From the NCBI GenBank assembly GCA_028714635.1, contig JAQTLZ010000005.1, forward strand, positions 1-59,911: a DNA stretch of 59,911 nucleotides, written 5' to 3'. The first letter of the stretch is position 1; every line of letters begins with the position of its first letter. This DNA is from Minisyncoccota bacterium. Lineage in GTDB: Bacteria; Patescibacteriota; Minisyncoccia; Phycocordibacterales; JAQTLZ01. Made by a program: the position numbers and the translations under genes. Shown here piece after piece: positions 715 through 55,084 of the stretch. Below the pieces are notes generated by a model. The model was not told where the DNA came from. It ran no database searches and saw nothing but the letters and a program-made list of their open reading frames with translations.

Positions 715-2154
715 TCAAATTCCGCAACTAACCTGGTGGATCTTCGCTCGTGTTATTGGACCCACAAATCCAGTTGGACTAATACCATTGGCTTTCTGAA
801 AATCTTTGACTGCCTGGAAAGTCAACATACCGAAATATCCAGTTGGTTCTGAACTGAGATATCCTTTCGATTGCAAGAAGTCTTGCAAGGAAGAAACTTC
901 ACCGTTAGTGGATATATCTCGTGACTGATAGCGAAGATCATAAGTAAGAACAACACATGAAGAGGAGGAAGCTTGGGTATCTATATCAGCGGTTCCCGCA
1001 TTGTGAGCAGTATCAGCATTGGTATTTTCATTGCAAGGATGTCCCGTCCTTGGATTAAAGCGGAATCCTGGTTCACATCCCACCGAAGAATCTGGAGGAG
1101 GTACAACTGCAGGAGGTATCGCTGATCGCGCGACAACCGAGAAAGAATCACTGTTGTCACCTGTTGCACCAGCGCCGCTGAATTGGATTTGATATCCAGA
1201 ACTCGGGACGACATCTCCCGGCACAGTCCAACTAAACCAGTCTTGAGTAGCAGTATTAACTGTCCCGAGAGAGCGGCTACCATTCGATCCAAGTGCGCCC
1301 CCCACCAAATAAACCGAGTAACTTGTAACCCCGACATCTCTTCCAGACCACAGAAGTTTATAAATCATTCCCTGTTTCAGAGTGGCTCCGGCGGATGGAT
1401 ATGTCACAGTAAAGGGATACAGATTTTGATTAGTGCTTGCCGCAATCGAAAATGATGAGCTATTATCACCAGTAGCGCCAGCGCCACTAAACTGGATTTG
1501 ATAACCTGATTCAGGTGGGATATTTGAAGGAACTGTCCAACTAAACCAATCCTGATTCTCTGTGTCTACAGTACCAAGATAGCGGCTTCCATTTGAACCT
1601 AAACTTCCTCCAACCAGATACACAGAGTAGCTCCTAACTCCATTATCTCTTCCAGACCACATGAGTTTGTAGGTTGAACCTTGATTCAAGGTCGCTCCAG
1701 AAGAAGGAAACGTTACTTTGAAAGGATTTTGTGGCTGGTTAGGGATTATTGTTACCGTCCTAGAAACAGAATTTATTCCATAAGCAGACAGTAAAAGTCC
1801 CTCATTAATATTTTGAGAGGTATTATTTGTAAATACAAGATCCGTTGAATATTCGCCCGAAGGGAAATATCCATTCGTACCACCAGCTCCAATATCTCCG
1901 CAACTAAAAGGATGCAGTTTGCCAGCATCATCTCGCATCTGGATTATAAGCCCCTCATGACAATCAGCTGTTACTGTCACACCTTGTGCTGTCACATCAG
2001 AAAACGCATAAGAAACATTAAACGCATTCGGATATGATTCAGGGTTGTATGATGCTGTAGAAACAGTAAATCTTACAACTGTCGCTTGAGCAGAGACAGA
2101 TGATACAACCACAAAAGAAGCTAGAATAGTAAGTCCTACTAGATATTTTTTCAT
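715..2154 (-). CDS. secreted repeat protein with C-terminal peptidoglycan-binding (PG_binding_1-like) domain
   Basis: N-terminal signal peptide (ILASFVVVSSVSAQA). Two 103-aa tandem repeats, a Cys loop (CEPGFRFNPRTGHPC), and a C-terminal LQDFLQSKGY...FGMLTFQAVKDFQKANGISPTG motif. Confidence 0.8.
   Translation of the reverse strand: MKKYLVGLTILASFVVVSSVSAQATVVRFTVSTASYNPESYPNAFNVSYAFSDVTAQGVTVTADCHEGLIIQMRDDAGKLHPFSCGDIGAGGTNGYFPSGEYSTDLVFTNNTSQNINEGLLLSAYGINSVSRTVTIIPNQPQNPFKVTFPSSGATLNQGSTYKLMWSGRDNGVRSYSVYLVGGSLGSNGSRYLGTVDTENQDWFSWTVPSNIPPESGYQIQFSGAGATGDNSSSFSIAASTNQNLYPFTVTYPSAGATLKQGMIYKLLWSGRDVGVTSYSVYLVGGALGSNGSRSLGTVNTATQDWFSWTVPGDVVPSSGYQIQFSGAGATGDNSDSFSVVARSAIPPAVVPPPDSSVGCEPGFRFNPRTGHPCNENTNADTAHNAGTADIDTQASSSSCVVLTYDLRYQSRDISTNGEVSSLQDFLQSKGYLSSEPTGYFGMLTFQAVKDFQKANGISPTGFVGPITRAKIHQVSCGI
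1108..1725 (-). repeat. in-frame tandem duplication, 2 x 309 nt (2 x 103 aa)
   Basis: PFKVTFPSSGATLNQG...QIQFSGAGATGDNSSSFS aligns with PFTVTYPSAGATLKQG...QIQFSGAGATGDNSDSFS. Confidence 0.85.
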
Positions 2155-6341: not shown

Positions 6342-6962
6342 TTACTTGAAAGCAGCCTGTACGATGTAGTCACTCTGGACCACTTGGGCACGAAGTTCGA
6401 GCATTGTTTTCCAGAGTCGCTCACGACTTTCTGCCCACTCTTGAGTGGTCCGAACCAATTGGTTCCATATCTGAATGGGATCTAAACGGACACCTTTTAC
6501 GAGGTCAGTGATGTTTACTCGGTCGACTCGTACCGCCTGCACCACTTCCGTCCCCCGATTTTTATACCCCGCAGCGCCGACAATCGAGACGTTTACCAAA
6601 AGCCAGTCGCCACTCCGACTCAGACCCCAGATGGGGATTGTTCCATTGCAAAGATATGTCCCCGAACTATAGCGATGCCCTGTATCGGGGATACTTATCT
6701 TCTCTCCTTTCCCAAAAATTCCTTGGATATCTGCTGTCGACTTCCCGTCTTCGTAACCAGTAATTACAGATCGACCCACCTCTCTCTCCCAAACATAATC
6801 CTTTAAGCACTTGAACTCGGAAAGCTTCGCCAACGAAACCGTATCTAGATACGGTTTCATATTATTGCGAAGTTCATCCAAAAGAGAGAGAAACCTGGCT
6901 TCTGTGGACAATCCACCTTTCACAATGAGCTTGCCTAGCTCGTCTTTCTTGAAAGAGGGCAT
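6342..6962 (-). CDS. hypothetical protein (GC-rich orphan inside the ribosomal operon)
   Basis: 206-aa ORF with no recognisable motif. Sampled 60-nt lines are about 50 percent GC against roughly 32-43 percent in the flanks. It has its own terminator at 6296-6333. Confidence 0.6.
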   Translation of the reverse strand: MPSFKKDELGKLIVKGGLSTEARFLSLLDELRNNMKPYLDTVSLAKLSEFKCLKDYVWEREVGRSVITGYEDGKSTADIQGIFGKGEKISIPDTGHRYSSGTYLCNGTIPIWGLSRSGDWLLVNVSIVGAAGYKNRGTEVVQAVRVDRVNITDLVKGVRLDPIQIWNQLVRTTQEWAESRERLWKTMLELRAQVVQSDYIVQAAFK

Positions 6963-7144: not shown

Positions 7145-7774
7145 ATGAAAAAGAGAGATTACAAAAATAGTGCGGAGGGTACTTTCGTGCATGTTTACAA
7201 CAGAGGAAATAATCGAGAGAAAATTTTTCATGATGAAAAGGACTACAAAGCTTTCGCTTTTCGAGTCGGACTCGCCCTAGGCATTGAAAGAGAAACTCTT
7301 CAAAAAGAAGACCTGCTGTCATTCCCCCACTCTCGAATTAGAATCAATGCAGGAGCTGATCTCTTCAAACTTCATTCATTTTGTCTCATGCCAAATCATT
7401 TCCATTTATTGATTGAACAATGCGGAGAGACAGAAATAGCAAAAATCATTTCCCAAATATCCACGAGCTATGCGATGTATCTCAATAAAAAATATCATAG
7501 AGTCGGGCATGTATTTCAGGAGAGATATAAAGCTGTAGTCATCGAATCCGATCCGCAACTCCTTTGGACTTCATCTTATATCCATATGAATCCGGTCAAA
7601 GCAAATATCGTAAAACACCCTGGTGAATATACATGGAGCAGTTACCAAGATTTTACAAAGAAAAGAAACTTACCGATTATCCACACAGATTTTTTACTAC
7701 CAATGTTCGGAGCGAAAGATTTCGAAAAAGAGACACTTGCCCTCTTTCTGAAATCCGAAGAATCCCCTTATTAG
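7145..7774 (+). CDS. REP-associated tyrosine transposase (IS200/Y1 HUH family, RAYT-like)
   Basis: HUH motif (NHFHLLIE) and catalytic Tyr region (SSYIHMNPVKA). Flanked on both sides by the same 21-bp palindrome. Confidence 0.85.
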   Translation: MKKRDYKNSAEGTFVHVYNRGNNREKIFHDEKDYKAFAFRVGLALGIERETLQKEDLLSFPHSRIRINAGADLFKLHSFCLMPNHFHLLIEQCGETEIAKIISQISTSYAMYLNKKYHRVGHVFQERYKAVVIESDPQLLWTSSYIHMNPVKANIVKHPGEYTWSSYQDFTKKRNLPIIHTDFLLPMFGAKDFEKETLALFLKSEESPY

Positions 7775-7935: not shown

Positions 7936-8433
7936 TTATTCTGCCAGCTTGTAAGTTTGATTAAATTCCGCGCGAGCAATTATATAAGGTTCCCCCCCCA
8001 TTGCCTTTGTATCAATATCATAAGTATCAGCGATAAGACAATCAGCAGCACCATTCTGCATTTCTCCCCAGGATGCCATCATCGTAACTGGGCTATTAAA
8101 AGGATTATCGATTGCTTTACAGTATCCTTTTGCCGAATATACTCCTGGCTCTCCGGCTTTTGGTTCATATCTTTTTGCAAATTTTATTCCGTCAATAACA
8201 TATCGTTCGCCACCGGGGTTTGTAATAATAGCATCACCTGCTTTCGCTACATTTTTCGTTTCAGTTGTTCCGTCTGTTAATTTTGTAATTATTTCCTCTC
8301 CCCCTTTGGCGATCTCAGCTCTCATTTCTCCTTGTTTTTTAAAGATAGGAGCATTTTCAAGTCCCTGCATAATTTCCGGTGCATGTCTGTTAATTTCTTT
8401 AAAAGTTATGGGCTCCGGCGCTTGTTCTGTCAT
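7936..8433 (-). CDS. hypothetical protein
   Basis: 165-aa ORF with no signal peptide. I cannot confirm any family assignment. Confidence 0.55.
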   Translation of the reverse strand: MTEQAPEPITFKEINRHAPEIMQGLENAPIFKKQGEMRAEIAKGGEEIITKLTDGTTETKNVAKAGDAIITNPGGERYVIDGIKFAKRYEPKAGEPGVYSAKGYCKAIDNPFNSPVTMMASWGEMQNGAADCLIADTYDIDTKAMGGEPYIIARAEFNQTYKLAE

Positions 8434-13111: not shown

Positions 13112-13143
13112 AAAGCCCCCACTAAAGCTTTAGTGGGGGCTTT
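13112..13143 (-). terminator. terminator-like palindrome after the 13166-16378 gene
   Basis: aaagcccccactaaagc / gctttagtgggggcttt. The T-run is short. Confidence 0.6.
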
Positions 13144-13165: not shown

Positions 13166-16100
13166 CTAGAACCCTAAGAGATGCCCGAAGGATTCAAGAA
13201 CCGAAGCGACACTACTGGTAGTCGGAGCAACGGAAAGACTTGTCACATTGAAGACTGCTGTATTAGTAAATTGAGCAGTTCCTCCTATATAGACCTTGAT
13301 TACATACGAACCAATTGGGGCACCAGTGGGAACTTGGAATGTAACATTATTACCATTAACCGTACCAGTAACAGAACTATAATTTCCAAAATAGACTGTT
13401 CCATAAGGGAACGCCACCGGACCATTAATCGTAACCATTGTTCCTGGATGCCCTGACCCTGGTGAAATAGAACTGATTGAGGGCGTTGCTGGCGTGGTAA
13501 CAGGAGGAAAACTCTTTCTAATACCAACATTCCCTGAATTATCTATGGGATCAATCGAGAATGTATAGGTAACACCCGCTGTTAATCCCGTCACATTCAT
13601 GCTCCCGACAGGACCGCTAATCTGATTTCCATTAACACTACTGTTAGGCGAACTTGTTATCTGGTAGTTCACAGTACCTCCGGAATTATCGCTTGCTCCG
13701 CTCCAATTCAAGGTCAAACTATTTGATGTTACGTTGGAGGTGGTAAAGGTGGAAGAGCCCGACCAGACAGGAGCCGTTGTGTCTGCAGCGGGACCCACCG
13801 TAATATTGACATACTTGTATACACCATCAGCGCTGTGAATTGTCAGCATTCCACTGCCGGTAGCAGTTGGAGTGTAAGTTCTTGTTGCAGCACCTGCGGT
13901 TCCTCCGATAGTTCCTGAAACAGATGAGGTAAAGTAGTCGAAGGCAGGTTGTGGAGAAAGGGCGACGCCAGATGCATTTTTTGCAGTGAATGTATATGTG
14001 TATGTCGTATTTTGTGTGAGACTGGTTGATCCTGCTACGTCGATGGAGGCGGTGGTTGGACAACCCGTAGTCGTCGCCGTAACCGTCTTTGCAGGAGAGC
14101 TGACATTGCCAGCACCATCAGTGGCTGTGATCGAGAAAGTATACGTTGTACAAGCGGAGAGGCTTGCAACACCAGTCCCACTATTCGAAGCGCCATTAAA
14201 AGTAAGGGTACTGCCGGTACCGCTCGGAGAACGGGTGATGGTGTAACTTGCGACTCCACTACCACCAGTGTTGTCGGTTGCTCCGCTCCAATAAAGTGAG
14301 AGACTATTGTTGCCTATACCTGAAGCAGTAAAGCTTGTAGGAGAAGTGGGCGCAGTGACGTCGGCACCTCCACCTGTAGCATTCACCGTAATTGTTTTAG
14401 AATTACTGCTGTTCGTTCCACCAATAATAGAAACCGACAAACTATACGTGCCCGCTACAACTGCTGGAATGGTGTAGCTTAGAGACGTCCCGTTTGCTGA
14501 GGAAGCTTGAGTTTGGTAGGGCGTTCCGTTGGCAGTATTTACGAGGGTTATCAAGTTTGGGTGAGCCGCGTCAGTGGAAAAATTAGTACCGCTAATGACC
14601 GCAGGTGTCGCTACTCCCGCTGTTACCGATGTTGGGGAAACGGAAGTGATGGTTGGAGCTGAGGGCGTAGTGGTAATCGTCACCGTCTTCGAATCTGTAA
14701 CCGTTCCGTATGATCCGGTACACGTGATGGTGTATGTCTTTGATTGCGTGAGGAGACCTGTATAAATACCAGTAGAATTGTAAGTTGCACCTGATGTAAC
14801 CGATCCGTTCGCTGTAGTAAAGTTGGTTCCCGTACATGAAGTGACGTTGGAAGATGTCCAAGTGAGATACGTTCCATTTCCAGATGGCAGTGAACTTGCT
14901 GCGACGGTCAGGGTGACGGAAGGGGTTGGTGTACCGGTAGCATTCACCGTAATTGTTTTAGAATTACTGCTGTTCGTTCCACCAACAATAGAAACTGACA
15001 AACTATACGTGCCCGCTACAACTGCTGGAATGGTGTAGCTTAGAGACGTCCCGTTTGCTGAGGAAGCTTGAGTTTGGTAGGGCGTTCCGTTGGCAGTATT
15101 TACGAGGGTTATCAAGTTTGGGTGAGCCGCGTCAGTGGAAAAATTAGTACCGCTAATGACCGCAGGTGTCGCTACTCCCGCTGTTACCGATGTTGGGGAA
15201 ACGGAAGTGATGGTTGGAGCTGAGGTAGCGTTCACCGTAACAGTTGCAGTATCACTTTTACCGCCAGAAGAAGCTGTCACCGTTACCGTACGCGCAGTCC
15301 CCGGAGCTGTGAGAAGTCCTCCACTTGAAATAGTCCCCGCAGTCGTAGTCCAAGAATAGGCGGGTTGTGTAGATAACGCGTGGGTAAACTGGTCTAAGGC
15401 AGTTGCAGTAAATTGCTGGGTTCCGTTAACTGTGACACTAGCAGTTTCTGGAGTAACAGAGATAGAAGTAAAGACTTGAGCTGCGTTTGACACCGTAACT
15501 TCTTTTGTACCGATTATCGTTCCGGAATAAGCGCTCACTGTCACCGGAAGTGACGTGCCCGTTATACTTGAGGGAGCTCTAAAGAGACCGCTTGAGTTAA
15601 TTGTCCCCCCAGTCGCATACCAAGTGAACGAGGACGGCTGTGTGCGAAGATCATTATTTTTCTGATCTTTCGCAGTTGCGGTAAATTGTATTGTTCCATT
15701 TGTCCCAACAGTAAGGCTCGAAGAAGTTGTTAATTCGATAGAACTGAAAACGGGTGTGTAGGAACCGCCACTATGACCACCACTTCCACCGCCACCTCCG
15801 CCACCACTACCACCTCCCGAAGCTACACAAAGAGAACCACTTAATGGGCTGTATTTTGTTGTAAGCGTACAGCCAGCTGGGAGCGAAGCGAAACAACTTG
15901 CACCAGTTATATTATTGAACAACGCGCCCCCACTGCATGGACCAGTTCCTCCTCCCGGCAATGACACGCACGCAAAACCAGTCAGCGTGCTATAGCCTGA
16001 AGCGCTGGTACATCCTGGCGGGAAATTTCCTGAAACTGTTCCACCAGCTTCAAAGTCTCGAATCACTGCTTCTATGGTCAGAGGACCAAAGAGAGAAGTT

Positions 16101-16378
16101 ACGTGAACGAGGTAAAGGAGTTTTTTACCAATGAGAATAGTTTGGAGAGCCGGGACAGTAGTGACTCCGTACTTCTTCAATGTCAGAGCTTTGGTCAGAG
16201 GACCAAAAGGACCGACAACACCAGGAGGAAGAATGCTTGCTTGGTAAGCGTGAATTCTTGCATCCGAAACTGCCGCGTGTACTGGCAAAGCAAATGAAAA
16301 AGCGAGCGCGGCTAGCGCCAAAATTCCTCCTATTATTGCAACGATTCTTGCTGGATTAACAGCGTGTGAATGACTCAT
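13166..16378 (-). CDS. giant secreted surface protein with PG-binding-like N-domain, Cys loops, Gly linker, Ig-like (Big_2/IPT-like) and FN3-like modules; ends in VLESFGHLLGF
   Basis: Signal peptide ending VHA-AV. Repeated Ig/FN3-like sequence patterns (LSLYWSGATDN...YTFSITATD), an internal 96-aa duplicated module, and a conserved C-terminal tag. Confidence 0.85.
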   Translation of the reverse strand: MSHSHAVNPARIVAIIGGILALAALAFSFALPVHAAVSDARIHAYQASILPPGVVGPFGPLTKALTLKKYGVTTVPALQTILIGKKLLYLVHVTSLFGPLTIEAVIRDFEAGGTVSGNFPPGCTSASGYSTLTGFACVSLPGGGTGPCSGGALFNNITGASCFASLPAGCTLTTKYSPLSGSLCVASGGGSGGGGGGGSGGHSGGSYTPVFSSIELTTSSSLTVGTNGTIQFTATAKDQKNNDLRTQPSSFTWYATGGTINSSGLFRAPSSITGTSLPVTVSAYSGTIIGTKEVTVSNAAQVFTSISVTPETASVTVNGTQQFTATALDQFTHALSTQPAYSWTTTAGTISSGGLLTAPGTARTVTVTASSGGKSDTATVTVNATSAPTITSVSPTSVTAGVATPAVISGTNFSTDAAHPNLITLVNTANGTPYQTQASSANGTSLSYTIPAVVAGTYSLSVSIVGGTNSSNSKTITVNATGTPTPSVTLTVAASSLPSGNGTYLTWTSSNVTSCTGTNFTTANGSVTSGATYNSTGIYTGLLTQSKTYTITCTGSYGTVTDSKTVTITTTPSAPTITSVSPTSVTAGVATPAVISGTNFSTDAAHPNLITLVNTANGTPYQTQASSANGTSLSYTIPAVVAGTYSLSVSIIGGTNSSNSKTITVNATGGGADVTAPTSPTSFTASGIGNNSLSLYWSGATDNTGGSGVASYTITRSPSGTGSTLTFNGASNSGTGVASLSACTTYTFSITATDGAGNVSSPAKTVTATTTGCPTTASIDVAGSTSLTQNTTYTYTFTAKNASGVALSPQPAFDYFTSSVSGTIGGTAGAATRTYTPTATGSGMLTIHSADGVYKYVNITVGPAADTTAPVWSGSSTFTTSNVTSNSLTLNWSGASDNSGGTVNYQITSSPNSSVNGNQISGPVGSMNVTGLTAGVTYTFSIDPIDNSGNVGIRKSFPPVTTPATPSISSISPGSGHPGTMVTINGPVAFPYGTVYFGNYSSVTGTVNGNNVTFQVPTGAPIGSYVIKVYIGGTAQFTNTAVFNVTSLSVAPTTSSVASVLESFGHLLGF
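14376..14664 (-). repeat. 289-bp intragenic direct repeat, copy 1
   Basis: Identical to 14937-15225 except for two substitutions. Encodes the IPT-like module PTITSVSPTSVTAGVATPAVISGTNFS... Confidence 0.9.
14937..15225 (-). repeat. 289-bp intragenic direct repeat, copy 2
   Basis: Offset by 561 nt (187 codons) from copy 1, with 2 mismatches in 289. Confidence 0.9.
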
Positions 16379-16467
16379 AATAATTTTATGATTGTTAATA
16401 AAAAAAATACTCCTTTGCTTTAATAGTACCTCTTCAGAGACTTAAATGATAATCGGTTTTCCACAAG

Positions 16468-16496
16468 AAAAACCGCCTTATTTATTGGCGGTTTTT
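16468..16496 (-). terminator. intrinsic terminator after the 16526-19114 gene
   Basis: accgcc-ttatttatt-ggcggt stem with a T-run on the minus strand. Confidence 0.7.
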
Positions 16497-16525
16497 CTTG
16501 TTTCTAGCTATTACTGACACCCCAC

Positions 16526-19114
16526 CTATTGCAAAGTAACACGCACTAGAGGAGAGATAATGTCTCCAGCATTTGTCTGTATCCAGAGAGACCCAGCACC
16601 CTTTGGCCAAGTACTTGGTATGTTTACAGTGGTTGTTTTCGGTGCAGTACCGCTATTACTGAGCAGGAATAATTGATGGCTAATTCCGCCTAAATCTTGA
16701 TAAATACCCTTGATGTTACTGACACGAACATCATCGCAATATTTTACTTCATGATTTCCAACTGCCCACGTTGTATTTTGAGAAGGTGTGACAATACTCA
16801 ATACCCCAGATGTACACGCGTCTTGAGCAAGTACAGATATCGATGGCGTAGAACATGTGACTGTCTGACCGCCAGAGGTGACTTTTACTGACTCGGTGTA
16901 AGACCCCGGAGTGGTGTAGGTTATGTTGAATATATTATTATCTGTTGGAGATCTGTAAGAACCACTAAACAACCATTCGTAGGAATAAGATCCACTGCCC
17001 CCACTTGCAGTTGCTGTAAATGTAATTGACTGGGTCACTTTCGCACTCGAAGGTGTCGCAGAGACAGAGCAAGAGAGGGGTGTGCCACTACCTGCACTCG
17101 TAGTTGTCACTGTAACCGTCTTCTCTACACTGACATTGCCCGCCGCATCTTTAGCTGTAATTGTGAAAGTATATCTAGTTCCAGGAGAAAGACCCGTAAC
17201 ACCCGTACCGCTATAAGCACCGTTGGGAGTGAGGGTGCTACCGCTACCGCCTGGGTCACGAGTGATGGTGTAGCCTGTGACTCCCACATTATCGGTAGCA
17301 CCGCTCCATTGAAGCGAGAGACTATTGGCGCCAACACCATACGCAGTAAAGCTTGTGGGAGGAGTTGGTCGAGTGGTATCTGACCCGGCATTGATCGAGA
17401 ATGAATTGTTGCTTTCATCGCACACGTTACGATCTTCATCACATACTTTTACCTTGAACGATCCGCTCCAAGAGGAATTAATATTGAGCTTAGTGTAATT
17501 ATTTACATTAGGTTGATTCGTAACATTCCCCGCCACAGTTCTGGAAATAAGAGCTGAAGTGAATGCGTCTGCACCAGAAGAGTTAAGAAGATGAATCCTG
17601 ATATGGCTTGCGTCCAGATTCAGACCAAACAAGACAGGAATGATTCCATTTGAGGTTACGAAACGATCTCCCCCATTCGGACTAATGACCGTAATTGATT
17701 GGGTATCTCCCCCAGGAATCGTCAAAGTCCCGCTATTGCTCGTACCCTTGCTGTTAGTAACGGACACCGTATGATTTCCAGAAGAAGGAAGAGGAGAGAG
17801 AGTAAAGAGAAAACCCGCTGAACTCTGGAGAGAACCGGAAATCGGTGATCTACTGTCAAAATTGACTTTCGTGTCAGAAGTAAACCGAGAACCATTAATA
17901 TAATACATTCCGACTACTCCTGTTGTAGAGACAGAAGTTATGGAAGGAGGCAAATCAGTTGTTGATGATACAACATTTACTGTTATCGATTTCGTGAAGC
18001 TTGGATGAAGAGAGTCAGAAAGATTTATACAAGTGATGCTGTAGGTGTATGTCTGTCCTAGAGAAAGAGAAGACTTGGACTCACTCCCGGAAGCAAGACC
18101 GGACCCGCTCCAACTTCCAGATTTTGTACAAAGTGCTACCGGGTCTGTATGAACTGGATCATTTAATTTCCAAGCAAGCGTGACTGAATCAGTCGGCAAT
18201 ACTGAAATGGATGAGACAGCCTGGCCATTTGCGGTGAATGAGAGAGAGGCGGTGGAATTGCCTCCGTCACCCCCTGATATTACCGGAGGAGGAATATCTG
18301 CTGTCTGACTTGCTGGGAGACGAACTACGCGGATGGTATCGGCGAGTGTCACACCACTAGAGAGAGTAAATTTCACATTGTATACTCCAACCGCTGGGTA
18401 AGTGTGGCTTAAGACAAAGTTAGTCGCAGTTGTCTCTACAGTACTGTCTACATGAGATGTCTTCCCATCTCCCCAATTTATATCCACACCCGATTTTAAT
18501 GCAGTCTGTGTTCTTCCTTCAAGCTCCCATACTGCTACTTTGCCAGCTTGGGCGCTCCCTGGACGCTTGAAATCAACAAAGCATTCAGTAAGACCCGTAG
18601 AGTGACCAAGCCCCGTACTTGGCGGAGGACAGACTACGATCGCGCTGAAACGAAGGGACGAAGCAGCACCGCCATAAGGCAAAAGAGGATTGGTTCGTAC
18701 AAGAACGTGTGAAGACAAATCTTTTCCATTTGGAATCACCGGAACAGAAGGGGCGCTCGAAGAAGTTCCTGAAAAAGTCGGGGTAATCTTGTGCTGGCCA
18801 GGTTTTGTGTACTTATGAGTACGCGTAAAAACTTCTTTCCGGTCGGAAGATTGAGCCTGCAAAACTCCTTTTTCATCTGCCGTCCCCTGTTCACCCCAAT
18901 CTATGTTCCAAGAGACCGCCACACCCCCGGGGACAAGAAGCTCTAACGCAACTGTTTCAATCCCGTTTATAGGCAGAGCTCTTTGGCTCACGACATAAGG
19001 AACCGAAACGGAATTTGTTGCAGTGCCTACCGCTCCGGCAATACTCACAAAAGCGGAAAGGCCCAAGACAAGAAGGGATGCTCCTAATCCAAGAGTTGAT
19101 AGATATTTCTTCAT
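16526..19114 (-). CDS. giant secreted surface protein with PKD-like and FN3-like modules
   Basis: Signal peptide. PKD-like NIDWGEQG/INWGDGKTS...HTYPAVGVYNV motifs and an FN3 module (LSLQWSGATDNVGVTGYTITRDP). No C-terminal tag. Confidence 0.85.
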   Translation of the reverse strand: MKKYLSTLGLGASLLVLGLSAFVSIAGAVGTATNSVSVPYVVSQRALPINGIETVALELLVPGGVAVSWNIDWGEQGTADEKGVLQAQSSDRKEVFTRTHKYTKPGQHKITPTFSGTSSSAPSVPVIPNGKDLSSHVLVRTNPLLPYGGAASSLRFSAIVVCPPPSTGLGHSTGLTECFVDFKRPGSAQAGKVAVWELEGRTQTALKSGVDINWGDGKTSHVDSTVETTATNFVLSHTYPAVGVYNVKFTLSSGVTLADTIRVVRLPASQTADIPPPVISGGDGGNSTASLSFTANGQAVSSISVLPTDSVTLAWKLNDPVHTDPVALCTKSGSWSGSGLASGSESKSSLSLGQTYTYSITCINLSDSLHPSFTKSITVNVVSSTTDLPPSITSVSTTGVVGMYYINGSRFTSDTKVNFDSRSPISGSLQSSAGFLFTLSPLPSSGNHTVSVTNSKGTSNSGTLTIPGGDTQSITVISPNGGDRFVTSNGIIPVLFGLNLDASHIRIHLLNSSGADAFTSALISRTVAGNVTNQPNVNNYTKLNINSSWSGSFKVKVCDEDRNVCDESNNSFSINAGSDTTRPTPPTSFTAYGVGANSLSLQWSGATDNVGVTGYTITRDPGGSGSTLTPNGAYSGTGVTGLSPGTRYTFTITAKDAAGNVSVEKTVTVTTTSAGSGTPLSCSVSATPSSAKVTQSITFTATASGGSGSYSYEWLFSGSYRSPTDNNIFNITYTTPGSYTESVKVTSGGQTVTCSTPSISVLAQDACTSGVLSIVTPSQNTTWAVGNHEVKYCDDVRVSNIKGIYQDLGGISHQLFLLSNSGTAPKTTTVNIPSTWPKGAGSLWIQTNAGDIISPLVRVTLQ

Positions 19115-19199
19115 ACAAAAATGATACTTAGTAATAAATATGACTCAATACATTATATACATCCCTTATAAAAACGCATCCACAACCAAACCCCGGCGA

Positions 19200-22109
19200 T
19201 TAGAATCCCAATAAATGACCAAAAGCTTCGAGAATCGAGGCCGTCGCTTCCGCAAGATTTTTTTGATAGAAATAGGAGCTAGGACCGCTTACCATTCCTC
19301 CCCCACTATATGAAGGGAAAGTTGTAGTATAAGTCGAGACTGCGGAGTAGGTGGGAATCGCGGTCGCACTTGCTGCCGTAGTATGGGTAGGTGCTGCAGT
19401 CACAGTGGGCGGAATGGTTGAGGTTGCCCCGCCTCCGCTTGTGGAGAATGAAACAGAATCTGATGAGGGATTATTTGAAAGATCATAAACTAGTACGGTA
19501 AGAATATGCTCACCTGCAGAGCCCGGATTAAAAGAATAACTAAATGGCGCGGAAGTGTCGTTTCCGATAAAACTATCGTCAATGTAAAAGTCTGCTTTAG
19601 CCACTCCAACATTATCAGAAGCGCTAATAGAGACAGTCACTATTCCGGAGACAGTGGCGTCTGAAGCGGGATAAGTAATGGAAACAGTTGGAGGTGTTGT
19701 ATCTGGGACAGTTCCCGAAGTGGCTGTCGGAGCAGCTGTCGGAGCAGCCGTGGGTTGCGGTGTCGTAGTGGTTCTATTGGTGCCCGAACTTCCCCCTCCG
19801 CCACTGTGACGAATTGCGGTTGGAGCGGGATTAGAATATGAGTTATTTACATTCCCATTGGTAGCAGAATCGGGAACTGTGGTATTAGGATTGGAATATG
19901 AAGTTGAGGTGTTCGAAATTCCTGAACCGCAACTGCAGGCTTGAATCCCACCATCTCTACCAGGTTCCCCTTTACTACGACTGACAGGAGTAAATGCATA
20001 TCTGCCTTTACTGTCATACCCTTTTGTATAGCAATATATATTTTTCTTCTCGCAGTCATTATCCGGAGAACATTGCTTAGTAGGGATGTCTTTACAAAAA
20101 TCTGTTAGGCTTGGGTACGACCTATGCGCCCTATCCGCTTCAGGTTGCGTTGAGTTCTGGCCAAGATTCGAATATGTCATTATTTGATTCGAATCACACG
20201 GACTTGCTGTATATTTGGGTTTACAACTGGAAGGACCTTTGTTTGAATTTCCAGAACCTGAACCAGAACCAGGAGTTCCGTCTGTTCCACTTGAACCACC
20301 ATCAGCCGGCCCTCCAGTTGCTGGAGAATTATCAGCTGGTGGAGCGGTGTCTGCCGGAGTTGTATCGGCCGGAGGAGTGTCTGCGGGAGGACAGATAAAA
20401 GGTCCGATGGGTCCAAGAAGATCAGGCCAAATAGGCTCTATATGATTTTTGAAAAAGGGACATAAAAAACCTTGATCGGTTTCGTCCTCCAGTGTTGCAG
20501 GAGGTTCTTCCGCGGCAGGAGGAAACTTTCCGATATCATCTTTTGGAGTTTCAGGTTCCGGAGCAGAAGGTTCTTGTGCAGTCGCGTCATCGGGTGGCGC
20601 AGAAGTTCCATCATCTGGCGGGGCATCAGCGGATGGTTCATCTGTAGCTGGAGTATTATCATCAGGCGGTGGTGGCGGGACTTTATCTGGAGGAACATTC
20701 AGCGATGGAGGAGGAAACATCCCACTATTCCCCGGCTCTGTGATATCGGGAGGTTCTACGGGTTCTGGAAAATCATTAGGCGGAACACCCTGAAGGCCTG
20801 GGGGATTCTGAGCGGGCGGTGGTGGAGGTGAAATTGGCAGAGGCAGTATACTTGCTGGCGGGCAATATTGAAGAGGAGGATTGAGGAGAGGAATCCTGTA
20901 ACATCCTGGATCAGCGCTTACAACTGCATTACTAGTATCATCGCTCACGGGCTTCTCGATAACTGTCACAGAATCTTTCTCCTCATCAAAAGCTTCCGGC
21001 GCTTTCGCGCTGACTTTTATATTAGGAAAGTAGATACCAGGCTCCCCATAACTACAAGTAGGAAAACTAAAACTTGTTTCTGAAGTATCGATTGGCCCAT
21101 TTGTATCTCCATCACCACACGAGTAGGTCATTGTGTATGGTGGGTCTTGGTCAGTTACCCAAGTAGCAATGACGTACGACGGATCTCTCACAAAGATTTT
21201 GTCAGGAGTATGGGGATTCGCGACGAGAGTTACACTTAAAAAAGGTCCGCTAACAACAGTGACACCCGCTTTCCCTACAACTTTCCCACTTGTCGCAATC
21301 ACATCGCAATCTCCGACTTTATTACCGCTATAGTGCCCCTTTTCATCAATACCCACGCAAGTCCCAGAAGTCCATTTAATTGCAGGAATTAGCCCTGTAA
21401 ATTTTTGTCCATTTTGATCTTTAGGTTCAGCTGTGGCATCACCGCCTCCATTTAAAGCTATTTTGGGAGGATATGCAGCTACCTTAAGCGAGGAAAAAAC
21501 GGGTGTCCCCACAAATTCCCATTTTCCGTTGGCACCCTTTCTTAAATCTCCTTGATGGACACCTTTGTCGGGGAATTTATCATTTATAAGTCCAGATACG
21601 GTTGGTCCGTCAGTTTCACCTTTTCTAGTAATAGGATCGAAAGCCCCATTTCCCAAGAAATGAAAGCTGAAGCCCCCGTTTGGTGGAGAGCCATACAATG
21701 CAACTGATTTATTTAGTATCGTTATCTTATCTCTCGCATGACTATTTAAATATTGAAGCATCAAATCCTCGAATTTTTTCTCGTCAATGCATTCGTTTTT
21801 GTTTGGATCTGCTATTTTGACTTGTTTAGATGATCCATCCCATCCCATAATACAGACTTGCCCTTTTTCGGTAACTCTGTACCCCAACATCACTACGGTA
21901 TAGTCTGTACCTCCAACAGTAGTATATATAAATATGAGCGGCCCGAAGATATGCTGTTCTCCATTCGCGTCAATCAATATCTTGTCGAGTATATGATCTC
22001 CTGGTGCAAAGACTTGGGGAGGTAAAACGTCGGCTCGGGCAACTCCAGAGAAGGAAAGAAAAAAAACTAGCGAAAGAAATACTAGAGAAAAGATCCTTGT
22101 CTTTTGCAT
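19200..22109 (-). CDS. giant secreted surface protein with Pro-rich linker, Cys-rich region and Ig-like domain; ends in ILEAFGHLLGF
   Basis: Signal peptide ending ARA-DV. Roughly 200 aa of P/D/T-rich low complexity, an Ig-like TPPTVSITYPASDATVSG...DNVGV module, and the conserved C-terminal tag. Confidence 0.85.
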   Translation of the reverse strand: MQKTRIFSLVFLSLVFFLSFSGVARADVLPPQVFAPGDHILDKILIDANGEQHIFGPLIFIYTTVGGTDYTVVMLGYRVTEKGQVCIMGWDGSSKQVKIADPNKNECIDEKKFEDLMLQYLNSHARDKITILNKSVALYGSPPNGGFSFHFLGNGAFDPITRKGETDGPTVSGLINDKFPDKGVHQGDLRKGANGKWEFVGTPVFSSLKVAAYPPKIALNGGGDATAEPKDQNGQKFTGLIPAIKWTSGTCVGIDEKGHYSGNKVGDCDVIATSGKVVGKAGVTVVSGPFLSVTLVANPHTPDKIFVRDPSYVIATWVTDQDPPYTMTYSCGDGDTNGPIDTSETSFSFPTCSYGEPGIYFPNIKVSAKAPEAFDEEKDSVTVIEKPVSDDTSNAVVSADPGCYRIPLLNPPLQYCPPASILPLPISPPPPPAQNPPGLQGVPPNDFPEPVEPPDITEPGNSGMFPPPSLNVPPDKVPPPPPDDNTPATDEPSADAPPDDGTSAPPDDATAQEPSAPEPETPKDDIGKFPPAAEEPPATLEDETDQGFLCPFFKNHIEPIWPDLLGPIGPFICPPADTPPADTTPADTAPPADNSPATGGPADGGSSGTDGTPGSGSGSGNSNKGPSSCKPKYTASPCDSNQIMTYSNLGQNSTQPEADRAHRSYPSLTDFCKDIPTKQCSPDNDCEKKNIYCYTKGYDSKGRYAFTPVSRSKGEPGRDGGIQACSCGSGISNTSTSYSNPNTTVPDSATNGNVNNSYSNPAPTAIRHSGGGGSSGTNRTTTTPQPTAAPTAAPTATSGTVPDTTPPTVSITYPASDATVSGIVTVSISASDNVGVAKADFYIDDSFIGNDTSAPFSYSFNPGSAGEHILTVLVYDLSNNPSSDSVSFSTSGGGATSTIPPTVTAAPTHTTAASATAIPTYSAVSTYTTTFPSYSGGGMVSGPSSYFYQKNLAEATASILEAFGHLLGF

Positions 22110-22184
22110 TCTTTTATTTTAGCAACTCTAGCTCTTCCTGTCTCACAACATGTGTGTACAAGTATAAAAATTCTGCTAAATAAT

Positions 22185-22210
22185 AAAACCACGCTTTTGG
22201 CGTGGCTTTT
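22185..22210 (-). terminator. intrinsic terminator after the 22231-22773 gene
   Basis: ccacgc-ttttg-gcgtgg stem flanked by A and T runs. Confidence 0.65.
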
Positions 22211-22230
22211 GCGATGAGTGAGTTGTAACC

Positions 22231-22773
22231 TCACTGCGAAGAGGTGAATTCCAGTTTTGAGAACTGGGTTTCATCGTCACCGTAGATATAATCGGGACTT
22301 TGCTCGGCCTCCATTATCTCTTGAAGGTCTTCGGGTGTCTCTGTGAGAGCAAAAGCGTCTGAACGCTTGCTCTCTTTCGTGCTATAGACCCAGCGGACCT
22401 TTATCGTTCCATCCTTCTGGAGACGCACCCGATAGACAACCGCCGAACGCTCGGACTTCTTGTCGCTGTTACCGACACCAGTAAGACACTCGAATCGGAA
22501 AAAGGTGTCGCCACGAAACGAGGTCATCCAGCCACGGCACAATTCTCCCAATGTCAGCGTCCACTTGCCGTTAGAGCGGATTGCAGTGTAGACGAGAAGG
22601 CCGTAATCGTTTTCACCGAACCTCACTACCTGATAGAGGTGGTAGGGCTGGTCATCAAACAACAGGCTGTCGTTAGTCCAGATGCCAACGATACAGCTAG
22701 AGATCGGTTTCTCTTCCTCTGCGCGAACAAAAAAACATGCCACGAGAAGAAACATGATCATGAATGCTTTCAT
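22231..22773 (-). CDS. hypothetical secreted protein (GC-rich orphan)
   Basis: Start set at MKAFMIMFLLVACFFVRA, a signal peptide. A sampled 60-nt line is about 53 percent GC. Has its own promoter (22845-22873) and terminator (22185-22210). Confidence 0.6.
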   Translation of the reverse strand: MKAFMIMFLLVACFFVRAEEEKPISSCIVGIWTNDSLLFDDQPYHLYQVVRFGENDYGLLVYTAIRSNGKWTLTLGELCRGWMTSFRGDTFFRFECLTGVGNSDKKSERSAVVYRVRLQKDGTIKVRWVYSTKESKRSDAFALTETPEDLQEIMEAEQSPDYIYGDDETQFSKLEFTSSQ

Positions 22774-22844
22774 GAAATCCCCCTTTAAAGGTACTGCCCT
22801 GTTTCTTACTTGCATCGCTCGGAAACAGATCCTAAGCTATATTA

Positions 22845-33465: not shown

Positions 33466-35010
33466 TTATAGCTGGTTTTTGAATAAATCCCCCACATTCT
33501 CACGTCTTGTGTAAAATCGAAAAAGTATCCTTGCATAAAGAACATAAAGGGCAGACATAAGCCACCAAGGAAACCAAGGAATCTGAACCGCTGCAAATGG
33601 GAGCGAAGAGAAAAAGTGGACCACAAAAAGCTCATACCAGAGAGAAACATACGAAATGAGGGTGAGAGGAAAAGCCAGTGCGATTGAAATATAGCTAAGA
33701 AGTGTGGCAAGAAAACCTACAAACATCGTAAAAGGCACGAACATCATGATGAGCGTGTTGGTGAAAAGAGCGACAAGCGAAAGATTTCCGATCTGATATA
33801 AAAGAAACGGCAAGACAAAAATCTGCGTTGCAATCGTAGCTGTCACTGTTTCTCTTATTTTGAAACGGATGGGAAGAAATAAGAGGTGAGGTGCAATAAG
33901 CGGAGCTCCTAGAATAAGACCGAGCGTAGCTAGAAAAGATAACTGGAAGGAGGGATCGAATGCTAAAATTTTTGGATTGACGATAATCATAAGCGCTCCA
34001 GCAATACAAAGTGCGCGCAAAACATCATATCGGCGCCCAAAAGCTTTTCCCAAAATCACCACGAGTGCCATAATCCCCGCGCGCACGATGCTCGCTGTTC
34101 CTCCTGCTAAGACAACAAAAAGGATAATGCCGAGAGCGCCGAACGAAAGAGCGGAAGTGCGAGGTAAAAATGAGAGTGCTTTCGTGATTGCGTCAGAAAC
34201 TAAAGTAACGTTGTACCCGGAAAGGACAATGACCTGAATCGCGCCGGCTCGCACAAATTCGTCTTGCAGATCTTTGCCGAGCGATCCTTTTCCCGCAACT
34301 AAAAGCCCCGAAAGGAGCGAGGAGTGCGGAGGAGAAAGAATGGCGTTTATGTGCTCGATAAAATTATTTTTTATCTTGAAAAGTACGGAACGAATTGGAT
34401 TTCCCTCTCCCTCTCCGATCAAAGAAATCTTGGGAAATTTCATCTCATAATAAATAGCGTCTTTCGCCAGATACGAAACGTAATCAAATGCCCGCGCGCC
34501 GGCTTCTGGTTCAAAATTTTCCGGCTTCGTAATCGCACCAGAGAGACTGACTCGATCGCCATAATGAAAATTGGCATAACGATCGGCTTTTGTAATAATT
34601 TTCGCCGAAACAGCAGTAGACGCGATCTTTTGGAGAATAATCGTAAGCCTCTGGTAAGTATCACGAATATCGGGCTCTTCTGTAATGACACCCTCGGCGG
34701 AAACTTTTTGCCCGACAAACCTTTCAGGAAGCGGGTAGCGGCCTCGCTCGGAAATGCTGTAACGAAGGATACCTAGAGATATGAGAAGGAGGCAGAGCGA
34801 CGCGGTGACTATCGTCTTAGAAAAATTTTCACCGCTCTCTTCTTTCTGACGGACATACCAAATATAAAAAAGTACAGCACCACTCACGAGACAGAGGAGT
34901 ACGGAAAGCGTAAAACTTATTTCCCAAAACGATCGAAGAAAAACTCCCAAAATAAAACTGGAGAGGACGATATAAAAAGTTTTATTTTGCATTGCTATTT
35001 CACGCCCCAC
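33466..35010 (-). CDS. comEC: ComEC/Rec2 DNA-uptake channel (DUF4131 plus Competence domains, no MBL domain)
   Basis: Polytopic membrane protein with an OB-like N-domain and Competence-domain pattern (GAIQVIVLSGYNVTLV). 514 aa. Confidence 0.8.
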   Translation of the reverse strand: MGREIAMQNKTFYIVLSSFILGVFLRSFWEISFTLSVLLCLVSGAVLFYIWYVRQKEESGENFSKTIVTASLCLLLISLGILRYSISERGRYPLPERFVGQKVSAEGVITEEPDIRDTYQRLTIILQKIASTAVSAKIITKADRYANFHYGDRVSLSGAITKPENFEPEAGARAFDYVSYLAKDAIYYEMKFPKISLIGEGEGNPIRSVLFKIKNNFIEHINAILSPPHSSLLSGLLVAGKGSLGKDLQDEFVRAGAIQVIVLSGYNVTLVSDAITKALSFLPRTSALSFGALGIILFVVLAGGTASIVRAGIMALVVILGKAFGRRYDVLRALCIAGALMIIVNPKILAFDPSFQLSFLATLGLILGAPLIAPHLLFLPIRFKIRETVTATIATQIFVLPFLLYQIGNLSLVALFTNTLIMMFVPFTMFVGFLATLLSYISIALAFPLTLISYVSLWYELFVVHFFSSLPFAAVQIPWFPWWLMSALYVLYARILFRFYTRRENVGDLFKNQL

Positions 35011-54970: not shown

Positions 54971-55084
54971 GGTGCTCCTTTCGAGCAATGAGTTCCTTGT
55001 CAAACAACTAGAAGTCAGCTCCAATGAGCCAGACAGTTCCAGTATCTATAGTACCACAAGAAAAGGAGGAGGGCAATAAGATTC

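Follow-up and report, generated by a model that had tools for sequence, protein, structure and literature searches.

A short C-terminal tail conserved among unrelated exported proteins of a Minisyncoccota bacterium

The LPXTG sorting signal consists of an LPXTG-like pentapeptide, a hydrophobic transmembrane (TM) stretch and a basic tail, and the PEP-CTERM, GlyGly-CTERM and PGF-CTERM signals are built from a signature motif, a TM helix and a C-terminal Arg/Lys cluster. The C-terminal domain (CTD) of the type IX secretion system (T9SS) is a beta-sandwich of 70-100 residues that belongs to diderm Bacteroidota with an outer membrane and PorU/PorV, and the beta-signal of outer membrane proteins (OMP) is a terminal amphipathic beta-strand ending in Phe, located on a beta-barrel and recognized by BamA and the PDZ domain of DegS. 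To our knowledge, the way in which the large, fast-evolving surface proteins of the candidate phyla radiation (CPR)/Patescibacteria are attached to the cell is essentially unknown. Other exported proteins are held at a membrane by a C-terminal amphipathic helix, formed by the last 18 residues in PBP5/DacA of Escherichia coli (PMC2909392) and lying in the plane of the membrane in Erns of pestiviruses (PMC4536213). In CPR bacteria, mainly Saccharimonadia and Microgenomatia, the Pam pilus (PamA/B/R) has been described as a Sec-exported surface structure with immunoglobulin (Ig) folds, in which PamR, which belongs to the FnIII proteins, and the chaperones are each anchored by a TM helix at the C-terminus (bioRxiv 10.64898/2026.03.03.709456). 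Here we describe a 13-residue C-terminal tail common to three exported proteins that are encoded in a 59,911-nucleotide stretch of a Minisyncoccota bacterium (contig JAQTLZ010000005.1 of assembly GCA_028714635.1, hereafter the window). A reading of the letters and open reading frames (ORFs) of this window, hereafter the sequence-only reading, had put the tail forward as a candidate new sorting or anchoring tag.

The tail peptide and its carriers

Three genes of the window, W1, W2 and W3, all located on the minus strand, encode proteins with the common terminus A-S-[VI]-L-E-[SA]-F-G-H-[LF]-L-G-F-stop (Table 1). The C-termini, the coordinates and the DNA strings quoted in the sequence-only reading were exact, and only its description of these proteins as giant was overstated, their lengths being 1070, 969 and just 339 aa. 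The degenerate DNA pattern for L-E-x-F-G-H-x-[LF]-G-F was matched three times in the window and not once in 100 dinucleotide shuffles. Five strict tails were compared, those of W1, W2 and W3 and those of R905 and S950, two proteins of related genomes (see below). Ten of the 13 residues are invariant in the five proteins and synonymous sites are near saturation. Codons for the same residue differ at 5-12 of 10-13 positions between strict tails, and W3 and R905, which are identical in 13/13 residues, use different codons for 12 of the 13. Pairwise nucleotide identity of the 39-nucleotide tail cores is 26-33/39, with identical runs of 8 nucleotides at most, and the 60 nucleotides directly upstream show random-level identity (11-24/60). 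Since the tail codons have diverged nearly fully at synonymous sites, it is the peptide itself that is conserved, and strong purifying selection clearly acts on it.

One important question is whether the shared end could reflect events at the DNA level, with no function of the peptide, such as recent duplication, gene conversion or a conserved 3' recombination cassette. Cassette shuffling is plausible in the hypervariable loci where the tailed genes reside. However, the codon divergence of the tails together with the random flanks excludes these origins, the codon analysis leading to rejection of the cassette and of recent duplication, and the occurrence of the peptide pattern in the window, as compared with the shuffles, also stands against them. 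An explanation at the DNA level is therefore extremely improbable. When composition-corrected BLASTP was used, the terminal 19-21 residues were the sole similarity between W3 and the other carriers; without this correction the carrier bodies showed only 22-25% similarity of the Ig-repeat or compositional kind. The tail is a modular peptide joined to unrelated protein bodies and the carrier paralogues are old. This agrees with the sequence-only reading, which had considered the bodies dissimilar and the conservation to be at the peptide level, and the case that it had named against itself, recent paralogues with homology extending upstream of the tail, does not apply, because upstream similarity is absent and the paralogues are not recent.

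All tail carriers bear an N-terminal, signal-like hydrophobic export segment. In the window carriers, direct reading of the sequence revealed a basic and then hydrophobic N-terminus followed by an AxA-like site (VHA/AV, ARA/DV and AQA/AG). The tail was present on 3 of the 14 signal-bearing ORFs of the window and on none of the 39 others (Fisher P=0.016, using a crude classifier), as would be expected from the earlier proposal that it belongs to secreted proteins. It is separated from the last beta-domain by a linker of 14-85 residues rich in Ser, Thr, Gly and Pro, and in its strict form it always occupies the extreme C-terminus, with the stop codon directly after every true occurrence; in the genome scan described below this was the case for 2/2 true matches versus 1/82 chance matches. 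A near-identical signal peptide, MRK.IL.GFA.L..., was also observed in W3, R905 and a 182-aa ORF of the locus L048, whose mature parts are unrelated, so that in this case a conserved N-terminal signal and a conserved C-terminal tail bracket a variable body. The signal peptides of W1 and W2 are of a different type.

The tail and the 3-6 residues that precede it are predicted to form a short amphipathic alpha-helix, as suggested by hydrophobic periodicity and by low-confidence AlphaFold2 (AF2) models. The hydrophobic moment of the tails peaks at 100-110 degrees (0.31-0.44) and amounts to 0.06-0.23 at 170 degrees, the corresponding values for the strict tails being 0.30-0.36 at 100 degrees versus 0.06-0.09 at 170 degrees, and the observed helical moment exceeds that of 97% of shuffles. 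In the AF2 models a helix follows a coil at residues 321-336 of W3 and at residues 131-141 (VASVLESFGHL) of the last 144 aa of W1, coinciding in both with a local maximum of the predicted local distance difference test score (pLDDT). When the residues are placed on a helical wheel, the invariant A, G, G, E, H and S make up one small/polar face, whereas the variable V/I and L/F/V positions fall on the hydrophobic face, composed of V/I, L, F, L/F/V, L and F. The stripe G-H-L-L-G provides a GxxxG motif that all five strict tails share without variation, and the related tails of R403 and R1393 contain small-xxx-small motifs. The mean hydrophobicity (H) of the helix is 0.5-0.6. The strict tails have a net charge of -1, with no K or R, and a hydrophobic moment (muH) of 0.28-0.30, under the Eisenberg surface line (0.37-0.40), on which the variants R403, R1393 and P0140 lie. 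The maximum Kyte-Doolittle (KD) mean over 19 residues, calculated for the last 30 residues, was 0.46-1.05; the usual value for a TM helix is about 1.6, and the tail is not TM-like. The sequence-only reading had likewise seen neither a TM helix nor a basic tail.

Relation to described C-terminal elements

The tail resembles the signals of the LPXTG/sortase, PEP-CTERM/exosortase, GlyGly-CTERM/rhombosortase and PGF-CTERM/archaeosortase systems in being a short terminal signature, restricted to a lineage and carried by unrelated exported proteins. Unlike these tripartite signals, it lacks a TM stretch and a basic tail, it exists in very few copies and no cognate enzyme gene was seen. The absence of a TM segment and of a basic cluster excludes LPXTG, PEP-CTERM, GlyGly-CTERM and similar signals. 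Moreover, no LPXTG pentapeptide was present in the last 40 residues of the carriers, no NCBIfam or Pfam sortase-signal model matched, and no PEP-CTERM, GlyGly-CTERM or PGF-CTERM family of NCBIfam was retrieved with the tails at E<=10. The T9SS CTD is also a C-terminal element common to diverse secreted proteins, but the element described here is a predicted helix of 13-20 residues that follows a coil, in a CPR bacterium. No CTD model matched, and PorU scored 8.8 bits (cutoff 420) on the Big_7 region of W2. With the OMP beta-signal the tail has in common its aromatic end, phi-x-Phe-COOH; this candidate was rejected on the basis of the low moment of the strict tails at 170 degrees as compared with 100 degrees, and of bodies made of fn3, TIG, Big_7 and Kre9_KNH domains.

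Searches with whole proteins and with isolated tails, including the variant tails of relatives, against Pfam and NCBIfam yielded no model matching the tail at E<=10. No match to a profile of the tail was obtained in the PDB, and a 46-column alignment of three tails, the first of them 44 aa long, gave 22 candidates when compared with 5.8 billion proteins, none of them at E<=10. The tail is accounted for by no known family, and the statement of the sequence-only reading that it does not fit the LPXTG, PEP-CTERM, GlyGly-CTERM or T9SS CTD architectures was borne out.

The closest likeness is to PBP5 and Erns, where neither a TM segment nor a covalent link is involved: the tail is C-terminal, resides on exported proteins, has helical periodicity and is not TM-like. 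The structural features of a PBP5-type anchor are present, namely export signals, a moment maximum at 100-110 degrees, a helix in the low-confidence AF2 models and KD values of 1.05 or less. Unlike the PBP5 and Erns helices, the strict tail is shorter (13-16 residues), acidic instead of basic and below the Eisenberg surface-seeking line, and it has an invariant polar face, a feature not needed for generic lipid binding. Neither the PDB profile search nor the family searches revealed homology to anchors of this type.

The Pam system and the tailed proteins have in common that they are Sec-exported Ig-fold surface proteins of CPR bacteria, but a motif like the tail is not described for Pam (bioRxiv 10.64898/2026.03.03.709456). 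The tailed proteins did not match the Pam models. W862, an untailed neighbour of W1 and W2, reached only 31.5 bits with the PamR model (NCBIfam NF058578, cutoff 300), which reflects the FnIII domains they share and has no bearing on the tail.

Relatives, the wider tail class and the surrounding genes

A motif of 13 residues cannot reach significance among 5.8 billion proteins, and hence degenerate DNA patterns were used instead. The peptide pattern without stop codon was scanned for in one genome per species, covering 185,579 species. Among the 84 loci found, two lie in long ORFs (>900 aa) with an upstream A-S-V and an immediate stop. These true matches are R905, of L020/L093 (Paceibacterota STB_28, assembly GCA_028711065.1), which ends in SSVASVLESFGHFLGF, and S950, of L048 (Paceibacterota STB_34, contig JAQTTF010000023.1), which ends in DQLASVLEAFGHVLGF. 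Only one of the other 82, located in a 31-aa ORF, has a stop directly after the match. A scan of Joint Genome Institute (JGI) metagenomes with the pattern plus stop codon gave five matches, all by chance, and a scan of viral contigs gave none. The search of related genomes suggested in the sequence-only reading thus confirmed that strict matches are terminal and on exported proteins, but revealed just these two further carriers.

When W3 was used in an exhaustive HMMER search, its N-terminal Kre9_KNH-like domain proved to have 68 relatives, among them P0127, encoded in a JGI metagenome, whose C-terminus SGWQTFWHFLGF (the variant TFWHFLGF-stop) narrows the most conserved core to F-x-H-phi-L-G-F-COOH. 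With W1 as query, 120 generic Ig-domain matches were obtained, of which only P0002 (identical to R905) has the tail, and W3 as a word-indexed query found its own fragment only. The exact tail is present in three metagenome-assembled genomes (MAGs) from one site, from which the runs SRR22315508 and SRR22315509 also come, and a metagenome contig encodes one variant, so that the range of the strict tail is limited to a single shallow lineage of Paceibacteria. In L048, a single TAA separates the tailed 950-aa ORF (S950) from the in-frame 182-aa ORF upstream of it, and the two could represent a gene for about 1139 aa with a sequencing error, a pseudogene or a case of readthrough.

The window is a gene-dense stretch of the CPR type that contains the str/S10/spc ribosomal operons, EF-G, EF-Tu, a type IV pilus cluster and ComEC, and proteins identical to those of the window are encoded by a Paceibacterota MAG (GCA_028711105.1). 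Two of the three tailed genes, W1 and W2, sit between the genes for EF-G and EF-Tu, in what we call the fusA-tuf island (Table 1). In L093, whose EF-Tu is 99.5% identical to that of the window, this interval contains genes of 129, 403, 1393, 612 and 905 aa, the last of which is R905, with the strict tail. W1 is orthologous to R905/P0002 by position and by its N-terminal region, whereas W2 and its positional counterpart R1393 share only the Cys-rich module (34% identity over 109 aa). R1393 ends in GLANIWSGFMSLFQSVTP and the 403-aa gene (R403) in FVANILGGFGSLFNTIQSMWK; the related tails of the two L093 island genes, ...ANILGGFGSLF... and ...ANIWSGFMSLF..., are contained in the ends VANILGGFGSLFNTIQSMWK and LANIWSGFMSLFQSVTP. 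In these positional counterparts of W2 the related tails are followed by 5-8 further residues before the stop and are not strictly terminal, indicating that a free ...GF-COOH is not essential to the wider class. The 12-residue pattern phi-A-[SNTQ]-phi-phi-x-x-[FWY]-[GAMS]-x-phi-phi covers the strict tails and those of R403 and R1393. When ORFs from all six frames of the window and of the related loci were scanned, it appeared exclusively within 20 residues of the C-terminus of long secreted proteins.

In more distant relatives (EF-Tu about 76% identical), proteins of the fusA-tuf interval end in amphipathic segments of other sequence. P0133 of L098 ends in SSLASVAFAIEDLVRLVNALR, P0140 of L102 in AAFLSLQGIVNWVTSLVK and P0125 in SVDDVVRLVNYFR; P0126, with another flavour of tail, is located outside any fusA-tuf island. 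The recurrent A-[SN]-phi-phi-[ED] may be a helix N-capping box, [SN]-x-x-[ED]. We tentatively regard these ends as lineage-specific flavours of one C-terminal helix module. Another C-terminal tail is conserved between Paceibacteria surface proteins that otherwise differ: P0133 (437 aa) and P0125 (1026 aa, from a contig of JGI 3300071358), which come from different samples, share the terminus ...[IV][ED]D[LV]VRLVN..R-COOH.

Across Paceibacteria, the fusA-tuf interval is a hot spot of genes for secreted surface proteins. The islands of the window and of L093, with 4 and 5 genes respectively, are nearly unalignable, with 33-37% identity in the alignable parts. This points to very rapid turnover or replacement of the island within a strictly conserved cluster of translation genes. 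In the window, a strong GC-rich hairpin, AAAGCCCCCACTAAAGCTTTAGTGGGGGCTTT, lies 23 nucleotides past the W1 stop and ahead of the tuf upstream region; it is terminator-like but has a short T-run, and it was missed by a consensus terminator scan.

Further observations concern other parts of the window. The S10/spc ribosomal-protein operon is interrupted by non-ribosomal genes at four places (Table 1). The insert between L5 and S14 encodes a secreted protein with two Kre9_KNH domains and PG_binding_1, and the others encode a 206-aa protein without family, an IS200-like Y1 transposase on the opposite strand (Pfam 1.2e-11) and a PGDYG-family protein. L098 and L102 have extra genes in the same operon at other positions. 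ComEC appears to be split, with the membrane part (Competence/DUF4131) and the Lactamase_B part in separate genes about 3 kb apart, between which W3, a SOD-like gene and a GATase gene are located; the two parts are also separate in L098, with only the SOD-like gene between them. Finally, a secreted protein of 660 aa (642 aa from the first ATG) combines two CHB_HEX_C_1/Fn3_assoc repeats with a C-terminal FGE-sulfatase domain (SUMF1/GldK-like), an unusual combination for a CPR genome.

Table 1. Positions of the tailed genes, their tail cores and other features of the window and of the related loci
Feature	Positions	Strand	Description
W1	13166-16378	-	1070 aa; C-terminus SSVASVLESFGHLLGF; export signal, Cys-rich/Gly linker, Ig-like repeats, 2 fn3, TIG, ~14-aa Ser/Thr linker, tail
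W1 tail core	13169-13207	-	13 codons ASVLESFGHLLGF; stop TAG 13166-13168
W2	19200-22109	-	969 aa; C-terminus EATASILEAFGHLLGF; export signal, unique N-domain, Pro-rich linkers, Cys-rich module, Big_7, ~85-aa low-complexity linker, tail
W2 tail core	19203-19241	-	13 codons ASILEAFGHLLGF; stop TAA 19200-19202
W3	32229-33248	-	339 aa; C-terminus EQFASVLESFGHFLGF; export signal MRKPILVGFALLAF..., Kre9_KNH-like Ig domain (residues ~38-140), second beta domain, ~45-aa coil, tail
W3 tail core	32232-32270	-	13 codons ASVLESFGHFLGF; stop TAA 32229-32231
fusA-tuf island	13166-22815	-	secreted-protein genes W194, W2, W862 and W1 between EF-G and EF-Tu
W862	16526-19114	-	secreted; fn3 and PKD domains; no tail; between W1 and W2
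Hairpin past W1	13112-13143	-	terminator-like
Shared signal peptide, W3	33135-33248		N-terminus of W3
Shared signal peptide, L093	10001-10090
Shared signal peptide, L048	6640-6705
182-aa and 950-aa ORFs, L048	3286-6705	-	950-aa ORF tailed
fusA-tuf hot spot, L093	1947-12718
fusA-tuf hot spot, L098	10001-11314		P0133
fusA-tuf hot spot, L102	7673-11902
Ribosomal operon insert	715-2154		non-ribosomal
Ribosomal operon insert	6342-6962		non-ribosomal
Ribosomal operon insert	7145-7774	+	non-ribosomal
Ribosomal operon insert	7936-8433		non-ribosomal
ComEC parts	29775-30653, 33466-35010		separate genes
FGE-sulfatase protein	53042-55024	-	secreted, 660 aa

Possible role of the tail

The explanation that we tentatively put forward, as a real possibility with somewhat less than an even chance, is that the tail is a tethered amphipathic helix for non-covalent docking or retention of the C-terminal end of variable surface proteins. 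The carriers would be Sec-exported, Ig-domain-rich, fast-evolving surface proteins, in which the flexible Ser/Thr/Gly-rich linker tethers the helix to the last beta-domain. The helix would present its invariant small/polar face and its hydrophobic face, and would hold the end of the protein at the cell envelope. This might occur through sequence-specific binding to a conserved envelope partner, or the helix might lie in the plane of the cytoplasmic membrane, partitioned into its outer leaflet, like the anchors of PBP5 and pestivirus Erns. Of these options a specific protein partner is favoured over generic lipid binding, because the small/polar face is strictly conserved, the charge is acidic and the moment is below the threshold. 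The acidic, K/R-free strict tails with their low moment (muH 0.28-0.30 versus 0.37-0.40) do not have the lipid-seeking character of a PBP5-type anchor, whose hydrophobic face is usually flanked by basic residues. W2, W3, P0133 and P0140 have no recognisable retention module other than the tail. The strict tail may be a local form, under tight constraint, of a looser group of amphipathic helices at the C-termini of proteins from the fusA-tuf island. The arguments for such a modest reading, a lineage-specific variant of a C-terminal helix, are that the range is narrow, the copies are few, no enzyme is associated and the sister genome has non-terminal variants. Regarding the new sorting or anchoring tag of the sequence-only reading, the modular peptide is real and we infer that docking or anchoring is its most plausible function, but a sorting system was not established and processing is the least supported of the functions proposed.

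Several points weigh against the docking helix. Both AF2 models are poor (single-sequence, mean pLDDT 41-42), so that the helix rests mainly on periodicity. In the window and in the loci of relatives no conserved partner gene was consistently adjacent to the tailed genes, and the sole adjacent candidate for a partner or receptor, the putative lipoprotein W194, has no counterpart in L093, L098, L102 or L048. R905, S950, P0125 and P0126 already possess an N-proximal PG_binding_1 domain, and their helix may be unneeded for retention and could sit distally. There are only 1-3 copies of the tail per genome, and with so few copies in a thinly sampled lineage the conservation comes from few independent lineages, in spite of the age of the paralogues. 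The distant flavours are only weakly linked to the tail, as the core A[SN][IV]phi, defined post hoc, was found 4 times in tails versus 1.0 expected (P=0.02).

These proteins could also be oriented the other way, with the N-proximal peptidoglycan-binding domain fixing the protein to the bacterium's own wall and the C-terminal helix, at the tip of an Ig stalk, contacting the envelope of a host as a distal interaction peptide. The order PG_binding_1, stalk domains, helix in R905, S950, P0125 and P0126 is in agreement with this, nearly identical genomes have hypervariable carriers, a pattern expected of proteins in contact with a host, and the helix is hydrophobic and exposed on a flexible linker. 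However, W2, W3, P0133 and P0140 lack a wall-binding domain and would be lost from the cell, and the reverse topology, with the helix on the own membrane and the peptidoglycan-binding domain on the host wall, fits equally well. In addition, an element that touches the host should change along with the body instead of being the sole invariant part, and the episymbiotic lifestyle of this organism on a host cell is presumed from cultivated CPR bacteria. We consider this role rather unlikely. A sorting or processing signal of a new kind, in which an envelope transpeptidase or a PDZ-type protease (a relative of CtpA/Prc) would read F-x-H-phi-L-G-F-COOH and cleave it or attach it covalently, is quite improbable. 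The tail stands at the exact C-terminus in all six cases of the strict class, its conservation is very strict and includes Gly and His, its phi-x-phi-COOH end, L-G-F-COOH in the strict tails, resembles class II PDZ ligands, and since no known model fits, any signal would be new. Nevertheless, a membrane enzyme would find neither a TM segment nor a basic cluster by which its substrate is held in place, each genome of the one shallow lineage would supply just 1-3 substrates, and in the sister genome the related tails stop short of the terminus. Among the genes of the 60-kb window and the related loci none encodes a PDZ or S41 protein or any other candidate enzyme, and no co-occurring enzyme, as the sequence-only reading had suggested looking for, was seen in the neighbourhood of the tailed genes.

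Self-association is an equally doubtful role, by which carriers of one or several kinds would be bundled in twos or threes through the GxxxG helix, forming multimeric fibrils or a surface lattice. The small-xxx-small motifs of the strict and related tails would suit such a bundle, and the same tail on different proteins would permit hetero-oligomers, but 13 residues are short for a stable bundle, P0127 has Trp in place of the first Gly and there is no heptad pattern of a coiled coil. A bolder extension of the docking helix, which we regard as unlikely, would see in the tail an address label: Paceibacteria would possess a so far undescribed system for docking or sorting proteins by a TM-less C-terminus, with lineage flavours that co-evolve with a receptor. 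An envelope receptor or enzyme would then read F-x-H-phi-L-G-F-COOH through the invariant Gly/Ala/Glu/His face, and the flavours FGHLLGF, ANI.GF.SLF and DxVRLVNxxR would each be matched to their own receptor.

The general importance of the tail hinges on whether the looser class of helices is one system, the exact motif being limited to a handful of genes in one shallow lineage. CPR surface proteins are the presumed tools of host recognition, and a conserved C-terminal helix swapped between adhesin-like proteins would be a handle on them, as a peptide for receptor pull-down or as a tag for heterologous display. The fusA-tuf island with its lineage-specific tail flavours would offer a comparative framework. 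If the address label were true, it would be a general way for wall-poor, sortase-poor ultrasmall bacteria to mount interchangeable adhesins from this island.

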